Positions 3,026-52,619 of a DNA stretch of 64,000 nucleotides are shown piece after piece (position 1 is the first letter of the stretch; each line of letters begins with the position of its first letter). The DNA is from Patescibacteria group bacterium (lineage in GTDB: Bacteria; Patescibacteriota; Patescibacteriia; 2-01-FULL-39-33). The notes beneath the pieces were generated by a model. It was not told where the DNA came from and made no database searches. It saw only the letters and a list, made by a program, of their open reading frames with translations. The position numbers were made by a program, and so were the translations under genes. The stretch covers positions 11,738 to 75,737 of the forward strand of contig JBBTQN010000016.1 in NCBI GenBank assembly GCA_038065695.1, read 5' to 3'.

Positions 3026-3165
3026 GCGTAGAGACGTTGTGCTGCAACGTCTCCGGAGCCGTAGCATCGCTACGGCTCTACCTAACAAAACCGCCCTTCA
3101 GCGGTTTCATTGTAGAGACGCGGCGGTGCCGCGTCTCAAAAGACGCCCCAGCGGGGCGTCTGCTA
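3026..3165. repeat. cluster of five consecutive GC-rich hairpins (agagacgttgtgctgcaacgtctc; gagccgtagcatcgctacggctc; aaaccgcccttcagcggttt; gagacgcggcggtgccgcgtctc; agacgccccagcggggcgtct)
   Basis: Perfect inverted repeats read directly. They belong to the gtagagacgc...gcgtctctac family, also seen at 27728-27755, 45568-45630, 54927-54995 and 60215-60244. Confidence 0.8.
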
Positions 3166-3175
3166 CATTTTTATA

Positions 3176-4072
3176 TTACAGCCCAAATTTTTTAATATTT
3201 TCATTCGCGATTTTCTGGATTTTGGCGATTTCCGCTTTGCCGGCCGGCGAAGCAAATAAATGTTTGAATCTTTTTTGAACTTTTAAAAATTCTTCAACGG
3301 GGATTTTTTTATTTATCTTTATCCTCCCGACCAGCTCGCCGTTGACATATTCAATTATCGGATAAGATCCCGACTGAACCGCGAGTTGCGCCACCGAAAC
3401 CGTGTCTTTGGCTTCAATCCCCCAGCCCGGCACGCACGGCGTATAAATTTGTAAATATTTCGGACCCTTGATGCTCAAGGCCTTTTTCACCTTGGCCGTC
3501 AAATCCGGCAGATCGCCGACCGTGACGGTCGCCACATAAGGCAAATGATGCGCCAAAGCGATTCCGATCATATCCTTTTTAGACAAATCATTGCCGAAAG
3601 AACGCTCCCCGGCTGGAGTGGTGGTGGTATTAGCGTCCAGAGGCGTGGCGCCGCTGGACTGGTAGCCGGTATTTTGGTACGCCTCGTTGTCGTAGCAGAT
3701 GTATAAAATATTTTCGCCCCGTTCCCACATGCCGGAAATATTTCCCAAGCCGATGTCAAAAGTCGCGCCGTCCCCGCCGATGGCAATAATATTTATGTCT
3801 TTGTCTTTTTTTTGGTATTTCAAGGCCGCCAAAATGCCGGAAGCGACCGAGGAGGCATTTTCAAACAAGCTATGGATGTAAGGCGTCTTAAAAATAGTGT
3901 TGGGATACTTCGTCGTCGTCACTTCCATGCAGCCGGTGGCGTTGGTGATGATCGTGTCGGGCCCGGCCGCGTCAATTATAAGCCGCAGCGCCACGATCAT
4001 CCCGCAGCCGGCGCAAGCGCTGTGCTTCGGGGAAAAATTTCTGGATAGGGGAGATTTATATTTTTTATTCAT
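3176..4072 (-). CDS. porB: pyruvate/2-oxoacid:ferredoxin oxidoreductase beta subunit (TPP-binding)
   Basis: Carries HSACAGCGMIVALRL and GCME Cys motifs, the IAIGGDGATFDIG TPP-binding motif and YDNEAYQNTG. Confidence 0.9.
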   Translation of the reverse strand: MNKKYKSPLSRNFSPKHSACAGCGMIVALRLIIDAAGPDTIITNATGCMEVTTTKYPNTIFKTPYIHSLFENASSVASGILAALKYQKKDKDINIIAIGGDGATFDIGLGNISGMWERGENILYICYDNEAYQNTGYQSSGATPLDANTTTTPAGERSFGNDLSKKDMIGIALAHHLPYVATVTVGDLPDLTAKVKKALSIKGPKYLQIYTPCVPGWGIEAKDTVSVAQLAVQSGSYPIIEYVNGELVGRIKINKKIPVEEFLKVQKRFKHLFASPAGKAEIAKIQKIANENIKKFGL

Positions 4073-4120
4073 AAAATTATAGTGGAATAAAACTACTTAA
4101 ATCACTAACAATAGAATTGT

Positions 4121-4969
4121 TTACTTCTTCTGCTTTTGTTCGAGATAATTTTTAACTTTATTAATTGTAGAATAATCATATCCCTTCGCCTTAAGTAATT
4201 CCACGCAGACAGAAGGATCTTCTCCTTTATAATATTTTATATCATCAAAACACCTCGCAATATTAAAAGGATAATCAATGCTGTATCCTGACATTTTTTC
4301 TACACCAATACATATATTACAATCATCATTAATATTATTTTTTTCATTAAACATTTTATTCCTTTGATTTATATAATACCAAAACTGGTAAGCCGTCATG
4401 CAAGCGTTCGGATAATAGTCTTTTTCATCGGTGATTTGCCAGTCATCATAAGGCCAAGCAAAATAATCAAGATCTAATTTATATTTATCATATAATTCAT
4501 CACATAATTTCAAATCGTTAGTGGCCATTAGTTTATCATGATAAGTATTAAATAAGCACAGATTTTTATCAGCAGAAAGAGAGCACAATTCCGGCGCTGG
4601 TATGGCGGGTACGCCCAAATAACTGCCAAAAAACAACCGCCAAGCTACAAATCCGCCAAATAATAGAAAACAACAAAATCCGATGATTGAAAAAATACGC
4701 AAGAATAAATTTTTCTTTATTTCTTTTAATAATAATATAAAAAATAATATAATCCATAATACCAAACCAACGACCGCGCCAAACATAAACGAAATAGCTT
4801 GTCCGATATTAAAACCAAAAAAGTCGCCCCTCAATAAAAAAGCGCCCCCCGTATAAATAATCAAAAACACGATGAAAGCTACCAAAAATGAAGAGGAAAA
4901 AATTTCAAATTTATTTAATTTATTACGCTCCTCGGCAGAGCGCATAAGCTGATCACTTAGTTGGTTCAT
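4121..4969 (-). CDS. hypothetical integral membrane protein with Cys-rich (8 Cys) C-terminal domain; very AT-rich, inserted between porA and porB
   Basis: Three to four predicted TM helices (FLVAFIVFLIIYTGGAFLL, FMFGAVVGLVLWIILFFILLL, IIGFCCFLLFGGFVAW) are followed by a Cys-rich domain (CSLSADKNLC...CDEL...CMTAY...CNICIG...CFDD...CVEL). Codon usage is dominated by AAT, TAT and AAA. Confidence 0.6.
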   Translation of the reverse strand: MNQLSDQLMRSAEERNKLNKFEIFSSSFLVAFIVFLIIYTGGAFLLRGDFFGFNIGQAISFMFGAVVGLVLWIILFFILLLKEIKKNLFLRIFSIIGFCCFLLFGGFVAWRLFFGSYLGVPAIPAPELCSLSADKNLCLFNTYHDKLMATNDLKLCDELYDKYKLDLDYFAWPYDDWQITDEKDYYPNACMTAYQFWYYINQRNKMFNEKNNINDDCNICIGVEKMSGYSIDYPFNIARCFDDIKYYKGEDPSVCVELLKAKGYDYSTINKVKNYLEQKQKK

Positions 4970-4989
4970 ATATTTATTAAATTATTAAA

Positions 4990-6165
4990 TTATTTTCCGA
5001 CGAAAATTATTTTCTCTTTGGTTCTCTTGGATATCTCAATGGTCTTTTTTATCATCTCCTTGGTAATATCGCGACCGCCCAAACCCATGATAACACCGGT
5101 GATTTTCGCTTGGCTTTGGCCATACAAAGCGCGCTTTATCTCGGTCGCTAAAATCCCTTCAGTGCCGAGTGAAATCGATTTGTCCAGCACGGCGATATTT
5201 TCGGCCTTAACCAACAATTTAATAATTTCATCGTCCGGAAACGGCCGGAAAGCGGTGATTTTTAAGATACCGATTGTGTTTTTGTGTTTTTGTGTTTTTG
5301 TGTTTTTGTGATATTCATCCACCGCCTCTTTCATTGTCCCTAAAACTGAACCCATCGCCACGATGACGGTCTTGGCGTTTTTATCGCCATAATATTCCGC
5401 CAAGTTAAGCGGCCGGCCGAATATTTTTTTAAAATTATCCATTTCCTTTTTAATCTCCGCTTTTGAGGCGGCCAAATCATCGTGCAAACTTTTCCTGATT
5501 TCAAAATAATGTTCCGGCGTGACCAGCGGCCCGAAAGTCAAAGGATTTTTTACATCCAATTTTTCCGAGGACTGATAAGCCGGCAAATATTTTTTGATTT
5601 TTTCCGCGGCTTCAATTTCCACCGGCTCCACCACATGAGTGAGAATAAAGCCGTCCAAATTCACCATCACCGGAAGCTCCAATTTCTCCCCCACTTTATA
5701 AGCCAAGATATGTAAGTCACAAACTTCCTGCACGGTCTCGCCAAAAAGCATTATCCAGCCGGCGTCGCGCATAATCATCACGTCCTGCTGATCATTCCAG
5801 ATATTTATCGGCGCCGAAACTGAACGATTGGCGTCGGTCATAACCACCGGGAGCCGCATGCCCGCCAGATTATAAAGCACTTCAGCCATAAGCAGTAACC
5901 CCTGCGAAGAAGTGGCGGTATAAGTCCTCACCCCGGCCGCCGACGCGCCCAAAACGATGGAAGCCGCGGCGAATTCGCTTTCCGCCCGCACATATTCAAA
6001 ATCCGCCTTGCCGGCCTCGCTGTTGGGCTGGCCATCGGCTTTCAGCTTGGCCAGTTCTTCCACAATATGCGTCTGCGGCGTGATGGGATACGCAGAAACC
6101 ACACCTACGCCGATATTATTAATTGTCTCGGCAATCGCCCGACTGCCTTCTAATATTTTTTTCAT
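4990..6165 (-). CDS. porA: pyruvate/2-oxoacid:ferredoxin oxidoreductase alpha subunit
   Basis: Reads MKKILEGSRAIAETINNIGVGVVSAYPITPQTHIVEELAKL..., which is the POR alpha domain architecture. Confidence 0.9.
   Translation of the reverse strand: MKKILEGSRAIAETINNIGVGVVSAYPITPQTHIVEELAKLKADGQPNSEAGKADFEYVRAESEFAAASIVLGASAAGVRTYTATSSQGLLLMAEVLYNLAGMRLPVVMTDANRSVSAPINIWNDQQDVMIMRDAGWIMLFGETVQEVCDLHILAYKVGEKLELPVMVNLDGFILTHVVEPVEIEAAEKIKKYLPAYQSSEKLDVKNPLTFGPLVTPEHYFEIRKSLHDDLAASKAEIKKEMDNFKKIFGRPLNLAEYYGDKNAKTVIVAMGSVLGTMKEAVDEYHKNTKTQKHKNTIGILKITAFRPFPDDEIIKLLVKAENIAVLDKSISLGTEGILATEIKRALYGQSQAKITGVIMGLGGRDITKEMIKKTIEISKRTKEKIIFVGK
5275..5310. repeat. 8-bp microsatellite (gtgttttt)x~4.5 inside porA coding sequence (encodes KNTKTQKHKNT in frame)
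   Basis: Direct reading of tgtgtttttgtgtttttgtgtttttgtgtttttgtg. Confidence 0.85.
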
Positions 6166-6177
6166 AAACCAAAAAGA

Positions 6178-7209
6178 TTAATACTTTATATACGCCTTTA
6201 CTAAGTCTTCATCTCCTCCGGCATTAATAAATTCTTGTAAACGCGGATCGTCCGAAAGATTATATTTTTTTCTGAAATCAATAATCGCCTTCGCTTGATT
6301 GATATCTTTTTTATTTTCAAAGTCGGCTAAATCGCGGAAACAGTCTCGTCCCAATGAATTGATTAATTTCGCCGTTGGTTTCAACCTGGCGGAAAAATAA
6401 GGCCTGACCAAATCGTAATAAACCTGATTTTGATCATCGAATTTATCATGATTCAATTCATATATTTTCTCCACCATATCGGAAAACAGCCGTGATAAAA
6501 ATTCATACTCCGAGTTTCCTTCACTGATCACGATCATCCCCTCTTCAATCTCTTCGGCTGAAAGCAACCTTTTGTCGCGTTCAATCGCCAACTCGCGATA
6601 TTTAGGATGCTGGCGAATATTATTCCTAAAAAAATCAACATTCAATCTGTCGGTGATCATCTCGTCCCAGCCCTTAAAATGAAATTCCTCTTTTTCTTCC
6701 ACTGGTTTCCCATGTCTTATACTCCAACCTTGTCGTAATTGATCTCTTATTTCTATCGTGTCATCGGTGGCGACAATATAATGTTTCGTGACCGCGTAAA
6801 GATGAAGAAATTCATGAGTTAAAATGTCCAATATCGCGAGTAAGTTATTTTTTTGTTCCTTTAAAAACTCTTCACAGATAAAAATACCTTGATTATTGCA
6901 AAACGCCGGATTGACTTCGTAATCCCTATTATAATTTTTCTCACATAAATCTCGGGGTAAAATATGAATCATGGATGGAGTTATTTCAATCGGCTCAATT
7001 TCAATTTGTCTTTTAATAGTTTCTCTTAATTCAAGTGCCAGCCATTCTATGTGATTTACTAGTTCCGGTGATTTCTCCACTTCGCCCTCAACGGTCATTT
7101 CTAAAAAATCTTTGAAGTCAGCTGAAACTACCTCATTATCTTCTCCCTCAAGCGGCCTCTTGCTTGAATCGACAAAATATAAATTTTTTTCAAGTTTGCC
7201 TTCGGGCAT
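6178..7209 (-). CDS. HExxH-motif protein, paralog A of tandem triplet (putative zincin-like metallohydrolase, unknown family)
   Basis: Carries HEFLH and a C-terminal IIDFRKKYNLSDD, and shares GEVEKSPEL...IHILP motifs with the neighbouring paralogs. Confidence 0.7.
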   Translation of the reverse strand: MPEGKLEKNLYFVDSSKRPLEGEDNEVVSADFKDFLEMTVEGEVEKSPELVNHIEWLALELRETIKRQIEIEPIEITPSMIHILPRDLCEKNYNRDYEVNPAFCNNQGIFICEEFLKEQKNNLLAILDILTHEFLHLYAVTKHYIVATDDTIEIRDQLRQGWSIRHGKPVEEKEEFHFKGWDEMITDRLNVDFFRNNIRQHPKYRELAIERDKRLLSAEEIEEGMIVISEGNSEYEFLSRLFSDMVEKIYELNHDKFDDQNQVYYDLVRPYFSARLKPTAKLINSLGRDCFRDLADFENKKDINQAKAIIDFRKKYNLSDDPRLQEFINAGGDEDLVKAYIKY

Positions 7210-7231
7210 ATAAATTATCCGCCGAAATTAT

Positions 7232-8245
7232 TTATTTCTTAATCATTTTTAACGCTTGCTCAATATTTTTATCCTCCGGCAAGCCGTATTTTTTTCTAAA
7301 ATTGATGATTTGATGAAGAGTATCATCCCCTTCAACTAAGTCGATATTAGCCAAATCAGTGAAGGCGCCATCACCTAATTTCCTTATCAATTTTCCCGCC
7401 CCAGGTAAATCGCCATTAAAATAATGATAAAAAAATTTGTTTCTCACTTCTAAATCATCTTCAAAATCATCTTGATGGCGTTTATAAATCGATTCATATA
7501 AATCTTTGAATAACGACTCTAAAAAATAATAAACACCAGAGAATCGGTTAGGAAGAACTGTTTTTCCTTCTTCTTTTTGTTTAGTGGTTAATTTTTTTTC
7601 CAATTGCTCTACCTGTTCAGCAAAACGCGGATCTTTAGATATCTTTCGAATATATATCAATCTGGTTAAATATTGCGTGATCGCTTCATTTAGCCCAAAG
7701 AATAAACGACGCGACTTTTTCACATCTTGGTAGGTGGCTCCATATCCGACAGCATAACCTTTTTGATATGGTCTAACATGGACTCGGCCTTCTTGATCAA
7801 TAAATTGAGAAAACTTATGAACCGAGGATTGATGTAAAAATTCATGTACTAATAAAAGTATTTTTTCTAATTCACTAACTTTATTATCCTTCAACTTATC
7901 AGCATCTAACCAAATACCAAAATCGGTTGCTGTAAAGGTTGGAATTCTTTCGGGATTATGAGAGCTAAAGATAGATAGAAGAGTGTCGTGAGGTAATAGG
8001 TGTACTAAATTTCTGTCGTTAAAAACATTAACTTCAACACCGAATTCTCTCGCCTCATTATGGACAATCTTTCTGGCTGAATCAATGAGCTCGGAAAGTT
8101 CTTTAGACTTTTCCAACTCTTTTTCCTTAACAAATTCAGAAACAATAGTATAATTACTATCTTCTTTCATTGGATTATTAAAGTCAGCCCCTTCATCTGA
8201 CTTTTCATTTTTAATAAAAATGTTTTTTCTTAATCCTTCAGACAT
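7232..8245 (-). CDS. HExxH-motif protein, paralog B of tandem triplet
   Basis: Carries LVHEFLHQSSV, GLNEAITQYLT and INFRKKYGLPED. The ORF track starts at 8305, but the Met at 8245 avoids overlap with paralog C. Confidence 0.65.
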   Translation of the reverse strand: MSEGLRKNIFIKNEKSDEGADFNNPMKEDSNYTIVSEFVKEKELEKSKELSELIDSARKIVHNEAREFGVEVNVFNDRNLVHLLPHDTLLSIFSSHNPERIPTFTATDFGIWLDADKLKDNKVSELEKILLLVHEFLHQSSVHKFSQFIDQEGRVHVRPYQKGYAVGYGATYQDVKKSRRLFFGLNEAITQYLTRLIYIRKISKDPRFAEQVEQLEKKLTTKQKEEGKTVLPNRFSGVYYFLESLFKDLYESIYKRHQDDFEDDLEVRNKFFYHYFNGDLPGAGKLIRKLGDGAFTDLANIDLVEGDDTLHQIINFRKKYGLPEDKNIEQALKMIKK

Positions 8246-8264
8246 ATTATTTTTTAAACAATTT

Positions 8265-9209
8265 TTAAATCTTTTCCTTAAGCAATCCTTTTTCAGAATA
8301 TTCAATTCTACCAGTTAATATTTCATCTTCCGGCAAGCCGTACTTTTCTCGGAAAGCCGCGATTTGTTTTAATGTCTCAAGAGAGTCATCTGGTTTTAAT
8401 CGGGAAATATCAAGATAACTGTGGGGATTTAGGATCGCAAAAAGAGGCAACAGCGAACCGCCTGAAAAATAAGATTTTACCATTTCCTTAATCACTTCAT
8501 CTTTGTCTTGATATTTATCTTGATTAACTTCTCTTAATTTTTCGGCTAAATCATCAAGTAATCTTTCCAAATAGTCATAACCGCGCGGTCCCGGTATCTC
8601 TTTTTCTTTCGCTGCTCCTTCTTCCTGGTTTTGGATATGATCCCGATAAAATTTTTTTGTCAAATATTGAGTAATTGTTTCATTTAAACCGCCAAAACAC
8701 ATTTCGGTTTTTGATAAATCGGCATAACCGCCTCTTTTTACCGACAAACCAGCATAAAAATCAAATTTTTTCTCCTCATCTTCCAAATAGGCAAGTTTTG
8801 TTATTGATGCTTGATGGAATAATTCATGAATCACGGCAATGAGTGAATCAATATCGACCGTCTTAAAAAATTTTTCATTCAATAAAATGCCGCGATTTGT
8901 GTGAGTGCCATAAATATTTTCATGAAGAGGCCGTTTTACATACGCCCGAAGTTTTTCTTCCGGCAAAAAATGGACGATATCAGCCGTAAGATTAAACGGC
9001 TCCACCCCGTATTCGGCGGCTATCTCGCGAATCTTTTCTGTCAACCAATCAATCTTTTCCGACCATTCCGGAGATTTCTCTATCTCTCCTTCAAATGGAC
9101 GGCTCTGACACTCACTTAATTCTTTTTTTAAATCGTCTTCTTTTTCTTTGGAAACCTGCTTTTGTTCCTTGCCGCGGAAAAAAATATTTTCTTTTAAGAT
9201 TTGTCTCAT
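8265..9209 (-). CDS. HExxH-motif protein, paralog C of tandem triplet; start overlaps porG stop (ATGA)
   Basis: Carries VIHELFHQASITK, GLNETITQYLT and AAFREKYGLPEDE. Its ATG at 9209-9207 overlaps the porG TGA at 9208-9206. Confidence 0.7.
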   Translation of the reverse strand: MRQILKENIFFRGKEQKQVSKEKEDDLKKELSECQSRPFEGEIEKSPEWSEKIDWLTEKIREIAAEYGVEPFNLTADIVHFLPEEKLRAYVKRPLHENIYGTHTNRGILLNEKFFKTVDIDSLIAVIHELFHQASITKLAYLEDEEKKFDFYAGLSVKRGGYADLSKTEMCFGGLNETITQYLTKKFYRDHIQNQEEGAAKEKEIPGPRGYDYLERLLDDLAEKLREVNQDKYQDKDEVIKEMVKSYFSGGSLLPLFAILNPHSYLDISRLKPDDSLETLKQIAAFREKYGLPEDEILTGRIEYSEKGLLKEKI

Positions 9210-9757
9210 AAAACTAAATTATTACTCACTACTTCGTACCCTCTCTTCGCCGCTTCTATATTCTTTTTTCCCACTTCGCCCTCAAATTTTTTACTAATCG
9301 CCTTTTCTACCGCTTTGAAACTGACTAAACCCGACAAGCCGGCAAAAGCGCCGACTAAAACCGTGTTAAAAATCGGCTTGCCGATGGTTTCTGTCGCAAT
9401 GTCAGTGGCAGCAATCGTTTTAATGGCCACGCCGGGCGGCGCTTTGAATTCCACCGCCGATCTTTTGGTGTTTATTAAAACGATCGTCCCTTTTTTCGCG
9501 CCCTTGAAAATTTCTACGATGTTAATTAAAGATTCATCTTGAATAATAATATAATCCGGCTCATAAATTTGCGAGCGCAACCGGATAAATTTGTCGTCAA
9601 TCCTCACATACGCCTCCACCGGCGCGCCGCGCCGCTCCACGCCGAAATTAGGAAAGGCCTGCGAAAATTTGCCGTCATAAAAAATCGCTTCCGCCAGAAG
9701 CTCGGCCATCGTAACTGACCCTTGGCCGCCACGGCCATGAATACGGATTTCTATCAT
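9206..9757 (-). CDS. porG: pyruvate/2-oxoacid:ferredoxin oxidoreductase gamma subunit
   Basis: Reads MIEIRIHGRGGQGSVTMAELLAEAIFYDGKF...FPNFGVERRGAPV. Confidence 0.9.
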   Translation of the reverse strand: MIEIRIHGRGGQGSVTMAELLAEAIFYDGKFSQAFPNFGVERRGAPVEAYVRIDDKFIRLRSQIYEPDYIIIQDESLINIVEIFKGAKKGTIVLINTKRSAVEFKAPPGVAIKTIAATDIATETIGKPIFNTVLVGAFAGLSGLVSFKAVEKAISKKFEGEVGKKNIEAAKRGYEVVSNNLVL

Positions 9758-9761
9758 AAAA

Positions 9762-10517
9762 TTATTTCAATATTTCCAACGCCTTATTTATAATCTGCTC
9801 CCACTGCTCCTTGGTCACCACGCCTTCCAGCTTGTGGCCGTTGACGAAAAAAGTCGGCGTGCCTAAAACGCCCAAAATCGTCGCGTCGTTAAAATCCTCT
9901 TGGACCGCCGGCAGATATGTCCCCTTTTTAGCACAATCGTCGTATTTTGCCAAATCCAGTCCTGAACGCTTGGCGATGTCGCGCAAAATTTCATCGGTAA
10001 AACCTTGGCTCTGCCCCAAATACATCCGGTCGTGAACCGGCCAGAATTTACCTTGCTCATTAGCGCACAAAGCCGCCGCCGCGATGGTCGGCGAATTATT
10101 ATCAATGGCCGGATAATTCCGATAAATGAAAAAAATCTGTTTTTGGTAGCGGCTGATAATTTCCCTGATAATCGGAAATTCCTCGCCAGTATGCGGACAT
10201 TGGAAATCGCCGAATTGCACAATCACCAACTTGGCTTGAGGGTTGCCAAAAGCCGGTCGGCCGGTTTTTTCCACTAATTGGCGAACGGCGCTCTTAGTTC
10301 CGCTGACGGCAAAACTGTCCAAATCAGTTGAACGAACGGCGCTCTTTCCTCCGCTGACGGTAAAATTGTCCAAATTGGTTGAATTGGCGTTGGCATTCGC
10401 CTCACCGGAAATATTTTTATTTTTTGAAGAGTTAAAAACCGCGGCGGACATAAAGCCAGCCACAAATAGAATTAAAATCACGAATAAAATTAAAAAAAAT
10501 ATTAATAATTTTTTCAT
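9762..10517 (-). CDS. DsbA/thioredoxin-fold protein with N-terminal membrane anchor; active-site variant CPHT; contains 42-bp in-frame tandem duplication
   Basis: Has an N-terminal TM segment and FGDFQCPHTGEE. A duplicated DLDSFAVSG(G/T)KSAVR unit is encoded at ~10290-10375. Confidence 0.7.
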   Translation of the reverse strand: MKKLLIFFLILFVILILFVAGFMSAAVFNSSKNKNISGEANANANSTNLDNFTVSGGKSAVRSTDLDSFAVSGTKSAVRQLVEKTGRPAFGNPQAKLVIVQFGDFQCPHTGEEFPIIREIISRYQKQIFFIYRNYPAIDNNSPTIAAAALCANEQGKFWPVHDRMYLGQSQGFTDEILRDIAKRSGLDLAKYDDCAKKGTYLPAVQEDFNDATILGVLGTPTFFVNGHKLEGVVTKEQWEQIINKALEILK

Positions 10518-10624
10518 TCCAAAAAAATATTAAAATATTGAATATTCAATATTTAAACTTGAAGTAATAAATCAATAAGATTTATCTTTATTATACCATA
10601 GGTTTATTTTTATTCCAAACATAT

Positions 10625-10652
10625 TGACTTCTTAAACCAAGTGTGATATACT
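10625..10652 (+). promoter_or_regulatory. sigma70-like promoter upstream of secG (TTGACT-16-TATACT with upstream TG)
   Basis: ttgact at 10625-10630 and tgatatact at 10644-10652. Confidence 0.5.
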
Positions 10653-10699
10653 AAAAACAAGCTGAAAATCGTATTTTTTTTCTCATCTTCAAAAAATAA

Positions 10700-10909
10700 A
10701 TGACCTTCAATATCATCCAATTAATCTTAGCCACCGCCTTAATTGTTGTCATTATTTTACAAAATCGGGGTTCGGGACTGGGCGCGGCTTTCGGCGGGGA
10801 CAGCAATGTCTATCGCACCAAACGGGGAATGGAAAAATTCCTGTTTCGGGCAACCGTCGTCATCGCGATAATTTTTTTCGTCACCGCGTTTATCAATGTC
10901 TTATATTAA
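10700..10909 (+). CDS. secG: preprotein translocase subunit SecG
   Basis: Reads LQNRGSGLGAAFGG...RTKRGMEKFL with two TM helices. Confidence 0.85.
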   Translation: MTFNIIQLILATALIVVIILQNRGSGLGAAFGGDSNVYRTKRGMEKFLFRATVVIAIIFFVTAFINVLY

Positions 10910-10939
10910 TCGTCTTTATATTAATCCGGTAAAAAAACC

Positions 10940-12772
10940 GTGAGTTTATTTTCATCTTGGGGAAAAAAGCTTTTTAGCGGCCTTTCCCAAACAAACAGAA
11001 AACTTAAACAGTTTGAAAGGCAACACCAGTTGGACAAACACCTGGTGCGTTCTTTAAATAAATCCAAATTCCTCTCTTTGAAGCAAATCAAATATTTTAC
11101 TCGCGTTCTTGACCGCCGAGAAAGCCGAAAAGTAAAATTGATTTCCGCCGTTGCCGCGATTGCCATCATCTCTCTTTTGGTAAAAATTTATTTTCTGACG
11201 ACCGTCGCCTTGCCGGCCTACGGCGGCGAGTATTCCGAAGGACTGATCGGCTCACCCCAATTCATCAACCCGATTTTAGCCCAAAGCAACGATGTGGATC
11301 TGGACATCTCCAGCTTGGTTTTCAGCGGGCTGATGCGGCAAGATAAAAACCGCCAGTTGACGCCGGACTTAGCCGACAGTTATGAAGTTTCCGACGACCA
11401 ATTGACTTATACCTTTCATCTGAAAAAAAACGTTAAATGGCACGACGGCGAACCGTTTAAAGCCGATGATGTAATTTTCACCGTCGCTTCCATCCAGGAC
11501 CCCGAATTTAAAAGTCCTTTGTCGCGAAGTTTCCGCGGCGTGGTCGCGGAAAAAATCGACGACTTCACGGTTAAATTCACTCTAAAAGAACCGTTCGCGC
11601 CTTTTTTAGGGCTTTTGACCTTTGGTATTTTGCCCGAACATTTATGGTATAATATCCCGGCCGCCAACGCCGATCTGACCGAGCTCAATAAACGGCCGAT
11701 TGGCACCGGCTCTTGGCAGTTTGAAAATCTAAAAAAAGACAAAGACGGCAATATCCGTTCCTATGCTTTAGTAAAAAATAAAGATTTTTACGGCGAGAAG
11801 CCGTATCTTAATGGAATTACTTTTAAATTTTTTGGCGATTTTCCGTCACTAGTGGAAGCAATAAAGAACAAGGATGTTTACGGCCTTTCTTATCTGCCGC
11901 GCGAATATCGCGAACAACTCAAAAAATACAAAAACATCAATTTTAATAATCTGAACCAACCCCAATACACGGCCATCTTTTTCAACCAGACCAAAAACGA
12001 CCTGCTTAAAGCCGACTATATCAGGCAGGCGCTCGCTCTCTCGGTTGACAAGCAAAAAATTCTTGACGACGTTTTCAAGTCGACCGGCAGAATTATCGAT
12101 TCTCCGACATTGCCGGGCATTGAAGATAATCCGGATATTAAAAAATATTCCTATGACCCGCAAGCGGCCAGCGCGCTCTTGGAAAAAAATGGCTGGGCAA
12201 TAATGAGCACCACGACCGAAGAAAGAGTCACTAAAAATATCAGACAAAAGAAAAATTTTCTTCTTACGATTACCTTGACGACCGTGGACCAACCGGAATA
12301 TGTCAAAACCGCCGAGCTGATCAAAAGCTTTTGGGAACAAATCGGCGTGGAGACAAAATTGAACATCGTTGACAAAGAAAAAATTCTGCCAGAAACAATC
12401 AAGCCGAGAGAATACGAGATTTTGATTTTTGGCGAAAATCTGGGCTCCGATCCGGACCCGTTCGCTTTCTGGCATTCGTCCCAAAACGAATATCCCGGTT
12501 TGAATCTGGCGATTTTTTCCGACAAAAAAGTGGATAAACTCTTGGAAGACGCGAGAAAAACCAACAATTGGGAAACTCGGAAAAAAAATTATCTGGAATT
12601 CCAAAAAATCGTCGCTGCCGAACTGCCGGCGATTTTCCTTTATAACCCGACTTACACTTACCCTCAAAACAAAGCCATCGGTGGCTTTGATTTGATCAGC
12701 ATCTCAGCGCCCGCTGACCGATTCGCCAATATAAACGAATGGTACATTAAAACAAAACGGGCGTGGAAATAA
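10940..12772 (+). CDS. ABC transporter substrate-binding protein, family 5 (Opp/Dpp-like), membrane-anchored
   Basis: An N-terminal anchor is followed by an SBP_bac_5-like region (YEVSDDQLTYTFHLKKNVKWHDGEPFKADDVIFT). Confidence 0.7.
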   Translation: MSLFSSWGKKLFSGLSQTNRKLKQFERQHQLDKHLVRSLNKSKFLSLKQIKYFTRVLDRRESRKVKLISAVAAIAIISLLVKIYFLTTVALPAYGGEYSEGLIGSPQFINPILAQSNDVDLDISSLVFSGLMRQDKNRQLTPDLADSYEVSDDQLTYTFHLKKNVKWHDGEPFKADDVIFTVASIQDPEFKSPLSRSFRGVVAEKIDDFTVKFTLKEPFAPFLGLLTFGILPEHLWYNIPAANADLTELNKRPIGTGSWQFENLKKDKDGNIRSYALVKNKDFYGEKPYLNGITFKFFGDFPSLVEAIKNKDVYGLSYLPREYREQLKKYKNINFNNLNQPQYTAIFFNQTKNDLLKADYIRQALALSVDKQKILDDVFKSTGRIIDSPTLPGIEDNPDIKKYSYDPQAASALLEKNGWAIMSTTTEERVTKNIRQKKNFLLTITLTTVDQPEYVKTAELIKSFWEQIGVETKLNIVDKEKILPETIKPREYEILIFGENLGSDPDPFAFWHSSQNEYPGLNLAIFSDKKVDKLLEDARKTNNWETRKKNYLEFQKIVAAELPAIFLYNPTYTYPQNKAIGGFDLISISAPADRFANINEWYIKTKRAWK

Positions 12773-12859: not shown

Positions 12860-12944
12860 GCCGATGTGGCGGAATTTGGTAGACGCGCACGGTTCAGAGC
12901 CGTGTTCCCGCAAGGGAGTGAGAGTTCAAATCTCTCCATCGGCA
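12860..12944 (+). tRNA. tRNA-Leu (anticodon CAG), long variable arm, no encoded CCA
   Basis: Full cloverleaf read by eye: acceptor gccgatg/catcggc, anticodon loop ttCAGag, variable hairpin tcccgcaaggga and T-loop ttcaaat. Confidence 0.85.
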
Positions 12945-21735: not shown

Positions 21736-22563
21736 TTAGTTATCAACCTCAAATTCCTGACCGTCATAAATATCGTTTTTAAAGAAATTATAAAAAGTTT
21801 TATAAGCATCCCTTGCTTTGGGTGGTAAATTTTCTATAAACTCACATAAAGCGTCATTTTCCAAACAATATTGTTTTGTAAATTCCGCGATAAATTGATC
21901 AAATGAGCTCTCCATCTCTGACTTAGGATAAACCCGTCCGACCGAACCTGAAAAAAAGATTCCTTCATTTTTTAGAATTTGATAGTTATTATCCAGCACT
22001 GTTTTGGCATCAGGATTTAGTTGTTCAATTAGTAACCCAACCGGATGGCCAGCGGTTTCATGAATAACTGTCGCAGAAAAATTATCGGGATTTTTCCCAT
22101 TAAAAGTAATATATTTCGGGATTTCCGCTATACCGTCATGAAAAAATCCCTCACATCCTGCGGAAAGATAACTTTCTTCACTTTGGAAATTTATTTCTTT
22201 GAGATAGCCCTTTAGCTTTTCAAGGGGGATGAATTTTTCCACTAATTCCTTTATAGTCCGCAGCCGGTCGATTCCTAAGCGACTGGCCATTTTTAAAGGA
22301 ATTAAATAATAGAGAGGATCTATTAAAACAGCTGATTCTTTGCCTAGATTAAATAAATCGGATATGAGCTCTTTTTCTTTCAGCCATTCTCGTTCTTGCT
22401 CATCCCAATCGATGCTAGGGTCAGGATAATCTCGCCTTGCTTGAGGTATTTGCTGAATCACTTCGTCAATCCATTCCAAATTCCTCTTCTTGCATAGTTC
22501 AATCAGCTGTTTTCTTTCCTCAAAGTCATTTTCTTTACTTCTGGTAGGTTCTTTTTCTGTCAT
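21736..22563 (-). CDS. hypothetical protein with HExxH motif (VIHETAGHPVG)
   Basis: No recognisable family. AT-rich. Confidence 0.4.
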   Translation of the reverse strand: MTEKEPTRSKENDFEERKQLIELCKKRNLEWIDEVIQQIPQARRDYPDPSIDWDEQEREWLKEKELISDLFNLGKESAVLIDPLYYLIPLKMASRLGIDRLRTIKELVEKFIPLEKLKGYLKEINFQSEESYLSAGCEGFFHDGIAEIPKYITFNGKNPDNFSATVIHETAGHPVGLLIEQLNPDAKTVLDNNYQILKNEGIFFSGSVGRVYPKSEMESSFDQFIAEFTKQYCLENDALCEFIENLPPKARDAYKTFYNFFKNDIYDGQEFEVDN

Positions 22564-52019: not shown

Positions 52020-52619
52020 TTAAATCTTTCTCCTTGCTTTGTATGCCAGGTATTTCTCCAAATATCTTTCTTCATTGTACTTATATGAAGGATTAAAATC
52101 AGCAATAATTATCGAACCATGACTCCTTATGGTTTTTTGCGTATACTTACTCCCATAATCAAGCATTTTTAATTTTCCGTCATCAATAGAAAAATTCCTT
52201 GGGTTCATCCAGTGGTGATTATCGCTACCAAAAAACGGATTGTCGTCATTTGAATCAAATAATATCTCTGTCGCCTGACTCAAAATTGCTCCCCATTCTT
52301 TTACTTGTTCTTTTCCCGCTAATTGGATATTGAAAAATCCAAACAAAGAAAAAAATGTCGGCTGCAAAATAGGATGTCTGGTTTTTAAATAAAAAATAAA
52401 TTCCCGCCAATTTTTTAAGATACCGCCAAATAAATATGACTTGACATCACCCATATCTTCTTTTTGAAGGGGCGGATTACCTCCAAAATAACGCTGGAGG
52501 TTTCTTTTTGTCAAAGCAATAGAAGTTAAAAAACGAATCATCGGCAGTTTAAAAACTAATCCCAATTTAGGAAACACGAATACAACCCGTGTCTTTCCTT
52601 TGCAAATATACATAGCCAA
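52020..52619 (-). CDS. hypothetical protein
   Basis: ORF only. A weak kinase-like HHWMNPRNFSIDDGKLKMLDYGS segment. Confidence 0.35.
   Translation of the reverse strand: MAMYICKGKTRVVFVFPKLGLVFKLPMIRFLTSIALTKRNLQRYFGGNPPLQKEDMGDVKSYLFGGILKNWREFIFYLKTRHPILQPTFFSLFGFFNIQLAGKEQVKEWGAILSQATEILFDSNDDNPFFGSDNHHWMNPRNFSIDDGKLKMLDYGSKYTQKTIRSHGSIIIADFNPSYKYNEERYLEKYLAYKARRKI

Follow-up and report, generated by a model that had tools for sequence, protein, structure and literature searches.

Reading of the open reading frames in the 64-kb window (the whole stretch of 64,000 nucleotides analysed here) gave the minus-strand gene order dsbA-porG-C-B-A-porA-TM282-porB, in which C, B and A are three paralogs with gluzincin-like motifs (Table 1). 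The order and coordinates given in a preliminary description of this DNA were confirmed, and matches to Pfam and NCBIfam backed the assignment of PorG, PorA and PorB. PorA had PorA_Arch as its best NCBIfam family (441 bits, under the curated cut-off of 550), and PorB likewise matched the family PorB best (347 bits, under the curated cut-off of 405). The translation of PorB contains the GDG...N motif for TPP and four Cys at the usual positions of the proximal [4Fe-4S] cluster, which we take to be its ligands from established knowledge of PFOR. TM282, a guest gene between porA and porB, encodes a C-terminal domain with 8 of the 10 Cys of the protein; it has 32% GC and a GC3 of 0.30, and found no match in Pfam, PADLOC or PHROG. 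For paralog B the ATG start (337 aa) was used, in agreement with the database entry P0004, and the 357-aa ORF starting at TTG was regarded as an over-extension. The sole Rfam match was a tRNA at 12860-12944.

Table 1 Features of the por locus and its surroundings (positions refer to the 64-kb window).
Feature	Position	Strand	Evidence or signature
Terminator-like hairpin, intrinsic type, 9 bp (7 GC), followed by a T-run	3141..3161	-	AGACGCCCCGCTGGGGCGTCTTTTG; 15 nt past the porB stop
porB (POR beta subunit, TPP-binding), 298 aa, intact	3176..4072	-	Pfam TPP_enzyme_C 1e-19
TM282 guest gene, 282 aa, about 3 N-terminal TM helices	4121..4969	-	TM and Cys features read off the translation
porA (POR alpha subunit), 391 aa, intact	4990..6165	-	Pfam POR_N 3e-71, PFOR_II 5e-26
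Tandem repeat in porA, perfect, 8 nt x 4.6	5274..5310		
Paralog A, 343 aa, gluzincin-like	6178..7209	-	HILP 6955-6966, HEFLH 6802-6816, GWDEMIT 6652-6672; equals P0003 / AAB358_01800
Paralog B, 337 aa, gluzincin-like	7232..8245	-	HLLP 7991-8002, HEFLH 7832-7846, GLNEAIT 7676-7696; equals P0004
Paralog C, 314 aa, gluzincin-like	8265..9209	-	HFLP 8961-8972, HELFH 8814-8828, GLNETIT 8670-8690 (Glu177)
porG (POR gamma subunit, PorC/PorG), 183 aa	9206..9757	-	Pfam POR 2.6e-42; NCBIfam PRK08534 252 bits, above cut-off
DsbA-like thioredoxin-fold protein, N-terminal TM/signal segment	9762..10517	-	Pfam Thioredoxin_4 4e-26, DSBA 7e-14
Promoter-like site upstream of dsbA, TTGGAA-17-TATAAT with extended TG	10590..10618	-	Consensus scan; transcription of dsbA-por may begin here

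The genes are tightly packed. The stop codon of porG and the start codon of paralog C overlap as ATGA at 9206-9209, dsbA and porG are 4 nt apart, and the gaps downstream of paralog C measure, in order, 19, 22, 12, 20 and 48 nt; both the overlap and the 12-48 nt range had been described before. Scanning found a single promoter-like site before dsbA and a single strong terminator after porB, the palindrome of which was also reported on the plus strand. The promoter-like site is weak evidence, because it is a consensus match and the total number of such sites equals the expectation from shuffling. These features suggest that the paralogs are co-transcribed with por. The guest genes stand out in composition: their GC3 is 0.27-0.37, whereas the window median is 0.52 and the por genes have 0.51-0.60. 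Repeat searches detected no terminal repeats, flanking repeats or mobility genes around them.

The arrangement was also found outside this assembly. Separate assemblies contributed eight or more contigs with an identical paralog C; among these, ENA ERZ1292629 (86 kb) and Logan ERR3858135 showed the same gene order, no porD and 99.9% identity across the region; the other contigs with paralog C were grouped as places similar to these two. Since independent assemblies share the gene order, misassembly was ruled out as its source.

Paralogs A, B and C share 27-32% pairwise identity and all retain HxLP, HExxH and G(L/W)(N/D)ExIT, in line with the earlier estimate of about 30% identity over a common motif skeleton. 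They are true homologues, as each matched the subfamily HMM at E<=1e-103, and the same HMM revealed no further copies in the 64-kb window. Exhaustive HMM searching uncovered a family of more than 1000 clusters at 50% identity, and every named member belongs to the ultra-small Patescibacteria. HExxH was present in 150/150 family representatives, in the form HE(L/F)(F/L)H in A, B and C, and in the structure model this motif, noticed already in the preliminary description, is placed within helix 120-134. The Glu of GLNExIT (E177) was invariant in 60/60 sequences and lies near the start of model helix 173-192. The predicted structure has the thermolysin-like catalytic-domain fold of clan MA(E). 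As described before, the paralogs have neither a signal peptide nor a TM segment.

No Pfam or NCBIfam model matched any of 60 family members, and longer members carried no informative fused domain in Pfam. A Pfam match to M76 (ATP23) was obtained for paralog A only, at 14.9 bits (E 0.023) and below the cut-off of 25.2, which does not qualify it for that family. Foldseek gave no significant match in PDB or BFVD, profile searches of PDB sequences returned matches at chance level only, and the literature search turned up no account of these zincins or of mosaic por operons in Patescibacteria. The paralogs belong to an undescribed gluzincin family whose fold class is assigned with confidence, and they may bind zinc and act as peptidases. 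We propose that they are soluble enzymes of the cytoplasm, either zinc metallopeptidases or amidohydrolases closely related to these. Zinc would be coordinated by both His of HExxH (H128 and H132), on the helix of the active site, together with the invariant Glu of G-L-N-E-x-I-T, on the long helix that follows. The Glu of HExxH may serve as the general base, and His80 and Tyr211, both near-invariant, could contact the substrate or the transition state.

The three copies had been described as a tandem triplication with rapid divergence. Phylogeny did not support this and ruled out a recent triplication, as each copy grouped with orthologues in other genomes: paralog A with copy 2 of locus L002 (100% bootstrap, 45% identity), paralog B with L005/L028/L029 (100% bootstrap), and paralog C with L001, copy 1 of L002 and L024 (62% bootstrap). 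A, B and C are three orthologous groups of old standing, and lineages differ in which of them they have retained.

The absence of porD, claimed earlier for the window, held up in motif searches, tblastn and the independent assemblies. All six reading frames of the 64-kb window were free of CxxCxxCxxxC, and relaxed Cys motifs and tblastn with the PorD of two relatives likewise found nothing there (best E 0.3), not even a remnant of the gene. Every other por locus examined has porD; a seeming absence in L009 was dismissed on finding an uncalled 91-aa ORF at 859-1134 of that locus. The POR encoded here therefore has gamma, alpha and beta, the last with its TPP motif and proximal-cluster Cys, and is devoid of an operon-encoded delta with 2x[4Fe-4S] in the window. 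At alignment columns that are invariant elsewhere, PorG, PorA and PorB show 0-4 unique changes, as in sister lineages, and their distances to outgroups are similar to those of sister lineages, without rate acceleration. The Hainich groundwater population may have lost porD independently, through a deletion that cleanly joined the porG stop to the paralog C start, and the remaining gamma-alpha-beta enzyme looks selectively maintained. We infer that the delta-less POR is active.

Comparison of por loci in relatives, proposed in the preliminary description, showed that porD is carried by the relatives and that zincin copy number varies from 1 to 3. In the close subfamily, 7/9 loci have a zincin gene in the porD-porA interval. 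The other two (L024 and L029) lie away from por, although in the tree they fall within clades of por-linked members. The six remaining loci with por linkage (L001, L002, L005, L008, L009 and L028) have porD directly upstream of the zincin gene or of the guest block, so the paralogs are not replacements for delta, and the earlier suggestion that they stand in place of this subunit, as an accessory module for a delta-less OFOR, is not supported. Two findings had been named as speaking against a tie to POR, membership of a well-characterised family and occurrence unlinked to por. The second was observed (L003, L019, L021, L024 and L029) and the first was not. Distant family members lie in unrelated gene contexts with no consistent neighbour.

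Zincin genes are missing from the por operons closest to this one by PorA identity (L013, 73%; L014, 70%; L015, 68%) and also from that of L016. Guests in L013 and L015 are a cyclophilin, an NTP-transferase-like protein and unknowns; L005 (PorA 59%) combines a zincin gene with UDG and a 23S-rRNA-IVP protein. Overall, the intergenic slots of related por operons contain cyclophilin, UDG, 23S-rRNA-IVP protein, NTP-transferase-like protein, membrane proteins and inteins, the last in the por operons of two relatives. The dsbA gene precedes porG in L005, L009, L013-L016 and L028. An SBP_bac_5 gene is encoded on the other strand and occurs as well where there is no zincin.

We consider it somewhat probable that the paralogs are passenger zinc peptidases co-transcribed with por, and that porD was deleted independently. 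The zincin genes would then be passengers using the por operon promoter rather than POR subunits, and the por operon of this clade would be a mosaic whose junctions, chiefly porD|porA and porA|porB, host functionally unrelated genes. It is unlikely that the zincins are instead accessory factors dedicated to POR, either in maturation or quality control of its oxygen-sensitive Fe-S subunits or in an upstream step of peptide fermentation (peptidase to amino acids to 2-oxoacids to OFOR), which would make co-expression functional and not incidental. Members nested in the same clades are found away from por, the closest por operons (L013-L016) do without the zincin, unrelated guests fill the same slots, the wider family keeps no consistent neighbour, and SBP_bac_5 shows neither shared strand nor dependence on the zincin. 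Quite unlikely, too, is a combined reading in which the por-linked zincins of this clade are dedicated partners of POR that feed it through the breakdown of peptides or process and police its Fe-S subunits, and in which the PorGDAB-type enzyme of the Hainich population has shed delta and works as gamma-alpha-beta via its single proximal cluster. If true, this would be a natural experiment in OFOR modularity, with the zincin set expanded to three specialised paralogs.

The position of the paralogs at the porD site and the translational coupling of paralog C to porG might suggest that they replace PorD structurally or in electron transfer, but the paralogs have 0-4 Cys, no Fe-S motif and a zincin fold rather than that of a ferredoxin, and porD stands alongside the zincin in every other por-linked locus, so we give this hardly any credence. 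A decaying locus, in which loss of porD inactivated POR and the operon and paralogs are drifting to pseudogenes, is very unlikely. The missing porD and the frameshift-prone 8-nt tandem repeat of porA would fit it, yet all seven ORFs are intact, as are the TPP and cluster motifs of PorB and the catalytic residues of the paralogs, and the POR subunits differ at invariant columns and in outgroup distance no more than those of sister lineages. The preliminary description had also offered a diversifying effector or defence-like cassette hitch-hiking on a highly expressed operon. Hitch-hiking is supported by the varied guests in the same slots. A defence, effector or toxin-like role is highly improbable, although the family evolves fast (orthologues 35-45% identical against 59-73% for PorA), varies in copy number, has low GC3 and includes one distant member adjoining an MNT/HepT toxin-antitoxin pair. 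Against such a role, A, B and C had no PADLOC match at E<=1, tblastn of phages and plasmids found no homologue, BFVD matches were not significant, and the PHROG matches, all below threshold, were to families without an assigned function. The paralogs also come without an export signal, flanking repeats or mobility genes, and their catalytic core is strictly conserved with no evident hypervariable region. The locus is an interesting mosaic of por and putative passenger zincin genes, and nothing points to a new kind of enzyme system.

These results give a large family, with named members from Patescibacteria alone and no Pfam or NCBIfam model, a confident gluzincin fold assignment and candidate catalytic residues. 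What were 'hypothetical proteins' thereby become an enzyme class open to testing, in organisms for which scavenged peptides are essential. The results also indicate that an operon of core energy metabolism has, in these streamlined genomes, repeatedly taken in unrelated genes at its subunit junctions and become a mosaic. Because of this mosaicism, guilt by association would mislead operon-based prediction of function in Patescibacteria. Finally, the POR of this locus, derived in nature from a four-subunit enzyme and now delta-less, shows no sign of decay in its remaining subunits and offers a handy system for studying the dispensability of the delta ferredoxin domain.

Among known proteins, the thermolysin-like gluzincins of clan MA(E) are among the closest (M1, with ERAP1 3qnf, tricorn factor F3 1z1w and LTA4H 5fwq; M4 thermolysin; M61). 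The family differs from them in the spacing of 44-48 residues between HExxH and Glu, a three-stranded insertion, a single domain of about 330 aa, a distinct N-terminal region (GE(V/I)EK, HxLP) and a helical C-terminal FRKKYGLxED. In M1 and M4 the corresponding spacing is about 18-19 residues. Unlike M1, the family has no GxMEN and does not follow HExxH-x18-E, and neither the paralogs nor 60 relatives matched Peptidase_M1; the paralogs likewise show neither the HExxH-x19-NExxSD of M4 (thermolysin) nor a match to its profile. M49 dipeptidyl-peptidase III, with HExxGH and EExxxH motifs and two lobes of 540-700 aa in total, is represented by 5zum, with 6% sequence identity; the motif of the present family is HExxH...NE. 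PDB 3cmn, a putative hydrolase and uncharacterised zincin-like protein of Chloroflexus aurantiacus, has 9% identity and no relation at the sequence level, and does not help in assigning function, since its own is likewise uncharacterised.

The operon resembles PorGDAB (porCDAB) in its intact gamma, alpha and beta genes in canonical order, and differs in that the delta gene is gone and four unrelated genes are inserted, three of them separating gamma from alpha and the fourth separating alpha from beta. A tight canonical PorGDAB operon is found in the relatives L016, L017 and L018. Delta-less OFORs of the two-subunit Sulfolobus type and KorAB type have the proximal beta [4Fe-4S] cluster only and reduce ferredoxin directly, as the POR described here would also have to do. 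However, those enzymes are separate lineages with gamma fused to alpha, whereas the subunits here belong to the delta-containing PorGDAB lineage, as judged by their best NCBIfam matches and by relatives that all have porD. The loss of delta would therefore be recent and secondary.

Gene order, the ATGA overlap of the porG stop and paralog C start, the short gaps and the lack of porD in the window, all noted in the preliminary description, were confirmed by ORFs, a six-frame motif scan, tblastn and other contigs. PorG, PorA and PorB were unambiguously identified as pyruvate:ferredoxin oxidoreductase (POR) subunits by Pfam and NCBIfam; the HExxH paralogs (A, B and C) and the 282-aa membrane protein matched nothing in either. 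Gaps from paralog C to porB measured 19, 22, 12, 20 and 48 nt, in order, and dsbA and porG lay 4 nt apart. A sigma-70-like site was located upstream of dsbA, the sole strong hairpin with a T-run sat 3' of porB, and no convincing internal promoter-like site or terminator was found between dsbA and porB; one transcript for the dsbA-por unit is plausible from the sequence. The palindromic pair near porB could be a REP-like or additional terminator element. Through the duplication in the dsbA-like gene, a 17-aa stretch is repeated in the linker that connects the thioredoxin domain to the N-terminal TM segment.

No CxxCxxCxxxC motif occurred in any frame of the whole 64-kb window, and relaxed motifs or tblastn with PorD of two relatives revealed no porD remnant there. 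Identical paralog C was carried by eight contigs read. The same porD-less order was found in both contig places displayed, an 86-kb ENA contig (Hainich groundwater well H43) and one Logan contig, both matching the window at 99.9% identity, and the remaining contigs were grouped as similar places; an assembly artefact was thus ruled out. Among the Patescibacteria por loci examined, porD was missing in the window alone. The 8-nt repeat in porA encodes a low-complexity insert (KNTKTQKHKNT) missing from relatives' PorA. One unit gained or lost would frameshift porA, so slippage or phase variation could occur at the repeat; its copy number was the same on the ENA contig, and one Logan contig terminated within it.

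The paralogs showed 27-32% pairwise identity and shared HxLP, HExxH, G(L/W)(N/D)ExIT and a C-terminal FRKKYGLxED-like motif. Among the matches listed by word-indexed protein searches were one JGI homologue and the proteins of the window itself. At E<=1e-3 an exhaustive profile search gave 1043 cluster representatives, of which 303 reached <=1e-10 and 16 reached <=1e-30; nearly all were 280-360 aa long and matched over their full length. Named sources were Ca. Pacebacteria/Paceibacterota, Ca. Parcubacteria and 'Patescibacteria group' MAGs. HExxH was present in all 150 best matches, none of which had a hydrophobic stretch able to serve as signal peptide or TM helix. E177 was invariant in a 60-sequence alignment, and H80, H128, E129, H132, R152, G154, F172 and Y211 were at least 90% conserved. 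The preliminary description had not recognised the family, and Pfam likewise placed none of 60 members above noise; family profiles matched no PDB sequence. The acidic stretch of the L024 copy, without a Pfam match, may be either an extended N-terminus or a start called too far upstream; distant members of greater length (545 and 622 aa) likewise had N-terminal regions without annotation.

Contexts were covered for 12 of the 16 close-subfamily representatives and two more copies from a metagenome scan (comparison loci, L numbers, in the table). Zincin copy number varied among por loci, and the L005 order was syntenic with the window. The family also occurred unlinked to por, at L024, at L029 and in distant members, which adjoined DAGK/DAC, MNT/HepT plus methyltransferase, or T4SS-pilin-like genes. 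In a neighbour-joining tree (60 bootstraps), paralog A grouped with L002 copy 2 (100% bootstrap, 45% identity). Paralog B joined L005, L028 and L029 (100%), and the group of C took in L001, L002 copy 1 and L024 (62%); a fourth clade comprised L008, L009 and four other representatives (100%). The C-type and A-type copies of L002 stood in the same relative order as in the window. A, B and C are therefore old orthologous groups, differentially retained, and the tandem triplication with rapid divergence proposed earlier, if taken as a recent event, was not borne out. Non-por members were nested inside por-linked clades, which shows relocation, and the family evolves faster than PorA.

GC3 of paralogs C (0.32), B (0.27) and A (0.37) and of the 282-aa membrane protein (0.30) was among the window's lowest (gene median 0.52, sd 0.09; porG 0.51, porA 0.56, porB 0.60). 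Relatives' genomes were AT-richer, and the gap was smaller or absent there. Either weak codon selection or intake of the guests from relatives of lower GC would fit the low values; a search for repeats or mobility genes flanking the window guests found none. The sole other window genes at guest level (see table) may be atypical or recently acquired.

The closest por operons were located by genome scan with the window's PorG. PorA identity to the window was 73% for L013, 70% for L014, 68% for L015, 59% for the zincin-bearing L005 and 53% for L016; L016 and two archaeal loci had a canonical, tight operon. The porD/porA and porA/porB junctions of this clade are slots holding many unrelated genes, of which the zincin is the commonest, though patchy. 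Inteins in relatives' porA are a further sign of the operon attracting selfish elements. L013 (CAYGKC010000003.1) and L014 (CAZEKG010000005.1), labelled 'uncultured Gammaproteobacteria bacterium', carry a DsbA-porG-porD-porA cluster like the window and L015, with PorG and PorA 66-73% identical; the label is probably wrong.

Features and gene orders in the window and comparison loci
Locus	Feature	Position	Remarks
Window	dsbA-por unit, minus strand	10517-3176	dsbA-like (251 aa), porG (183 aa), C (314 aa), B (337 aa from ATG at 8245), A (343 aa), porA (391 aa), 282-aa membrane protein, porB (298 aa)
Window	porA tandem repeat, minus strand	5274-5310	perfect, 8 nt, TTGTGTTT x 4.6
Window	palindromic element, two copies	3028-3053, 3112-3137	26 nt, GTAGAGACG...CGTCTC; just past porB terminator, before next gene
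Window	tandem duplication in dsbA-like gene	10282-10383	51 nt, 2 copies, 86% identical
Window	tRNA gene	12860-12944	Rfam, 54 bits; between SBP_bac_5 and RNase J genes
Window	low-GC3 genes	21736-22563, 52020-52619	GC3 0.31-0.32
L001	gene order		porD, zincin, porA
L002	gene order		porD, zincin, secreted cyclophilin, zincin, 229-aa membrane protein, porA with intein, porB
L002	porA, intein-interrupted	3839-5935	698 aa; Hint, intein-splicing, LAGLIDADG matches
L005 (L006 near-identical)	gene order		SecG, DsbA, porG, porD, zincin, UDG, porA, 23S-rRNA-IVP protein, porB, UvrA
L005	uracil-DNA glycosylase (UDG)	9039-9548	
L005	23S-rRNA-IVP four-helix-bundle protein	10789-11151	
L008	gene order		porG, porD, cyclophilin, zincin
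L009-L012	gene order		porG, porD (91-aa ORF, uncalled), zincin, zincin, porA
L009	porA, intein-interrupted	3192-4904	at least 571 aa
L013	505-aa and 100-aa proteins	9540-11362	porG-porD; no Pfam match
L013	106-aa protein	11669-11989	porD-porA; no Pfam match
L015 (Ca. Buchananbacteria)	secreted cyclophilin	9834-10508	porD-porA
L015	NTP-transferase-like	11687-12499	porA-porB; identity from its sequence only
L024	gene order, away from por		HAD, HD, zincin, 222 aa, zincin
L024	non-por copy in 522-codon ORF	5374-6942	~190 acidic residues ahead of zincin core
L028	gene order		DsbA, porG, porD, zincin, porA, porB
L029	gene order, away from por		TP_methylase, zincin, MetRS

On balance, we lean towards reading A, B and C as putative cytoplasmic gluzincin peptidases that would be made off the dsbA-por transcript as passengers, porD having been removed by a clean deletion independent of them. 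The main rival, which we consider unlikely, is a true functional tie to POR, either in quality control or maturation of the Fe-S subunits or in a step feeding peptides to 2-oxoacids. The constant slot of the zincin genes, the start/stop overlaps and structural neighbours of exo- or oligopeptidase flavour speak for such a tie; the members away from por, the zincin-free sister operons (L013, L014 and L015) and the miscellany of other guests speak against it. That the paralogs stand in place of delta, as first suggested, is barely credible, since porD accompanies the zincin at every other por-linked locus.

Two further readings are poorly supported. A defence or effector cassette is improbable; searches of the paralogs against NCBIfam, PADLOC, phages and plasmids gave no match, and those against PHROGs only sub-threshold ones. 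Decay of the operon is equally improbable. At columns where all the other sequences agree, the window's unique changes (PorA 3/95, PorB 4/65, PorG 0/45) fell inside the sister lineages' range, and outgroup distances were not inflated save for PorA, which dropped some three points. In the PorB translation the TPP motif GDG...N was retained, as were four Cys at what we take to be the positions ligating the proximal cluster in PFOR. The loss of porD may be very recent, a gamma-alpha-beta enzyme may still be under selection, or porD may lie elsewhere in the genome.

The finding is of use for annotating Patescibacteria, and the locus offers a natural test of whether delta is dispensable. The preliminary description is borne out in what it observed and supported in part in how it read it. 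Nothing indicates a categorically new system: the finding is a new family-level variety of a known enzyme kind, inside an unusually mosaic por operon from which the delta gene has been lost.
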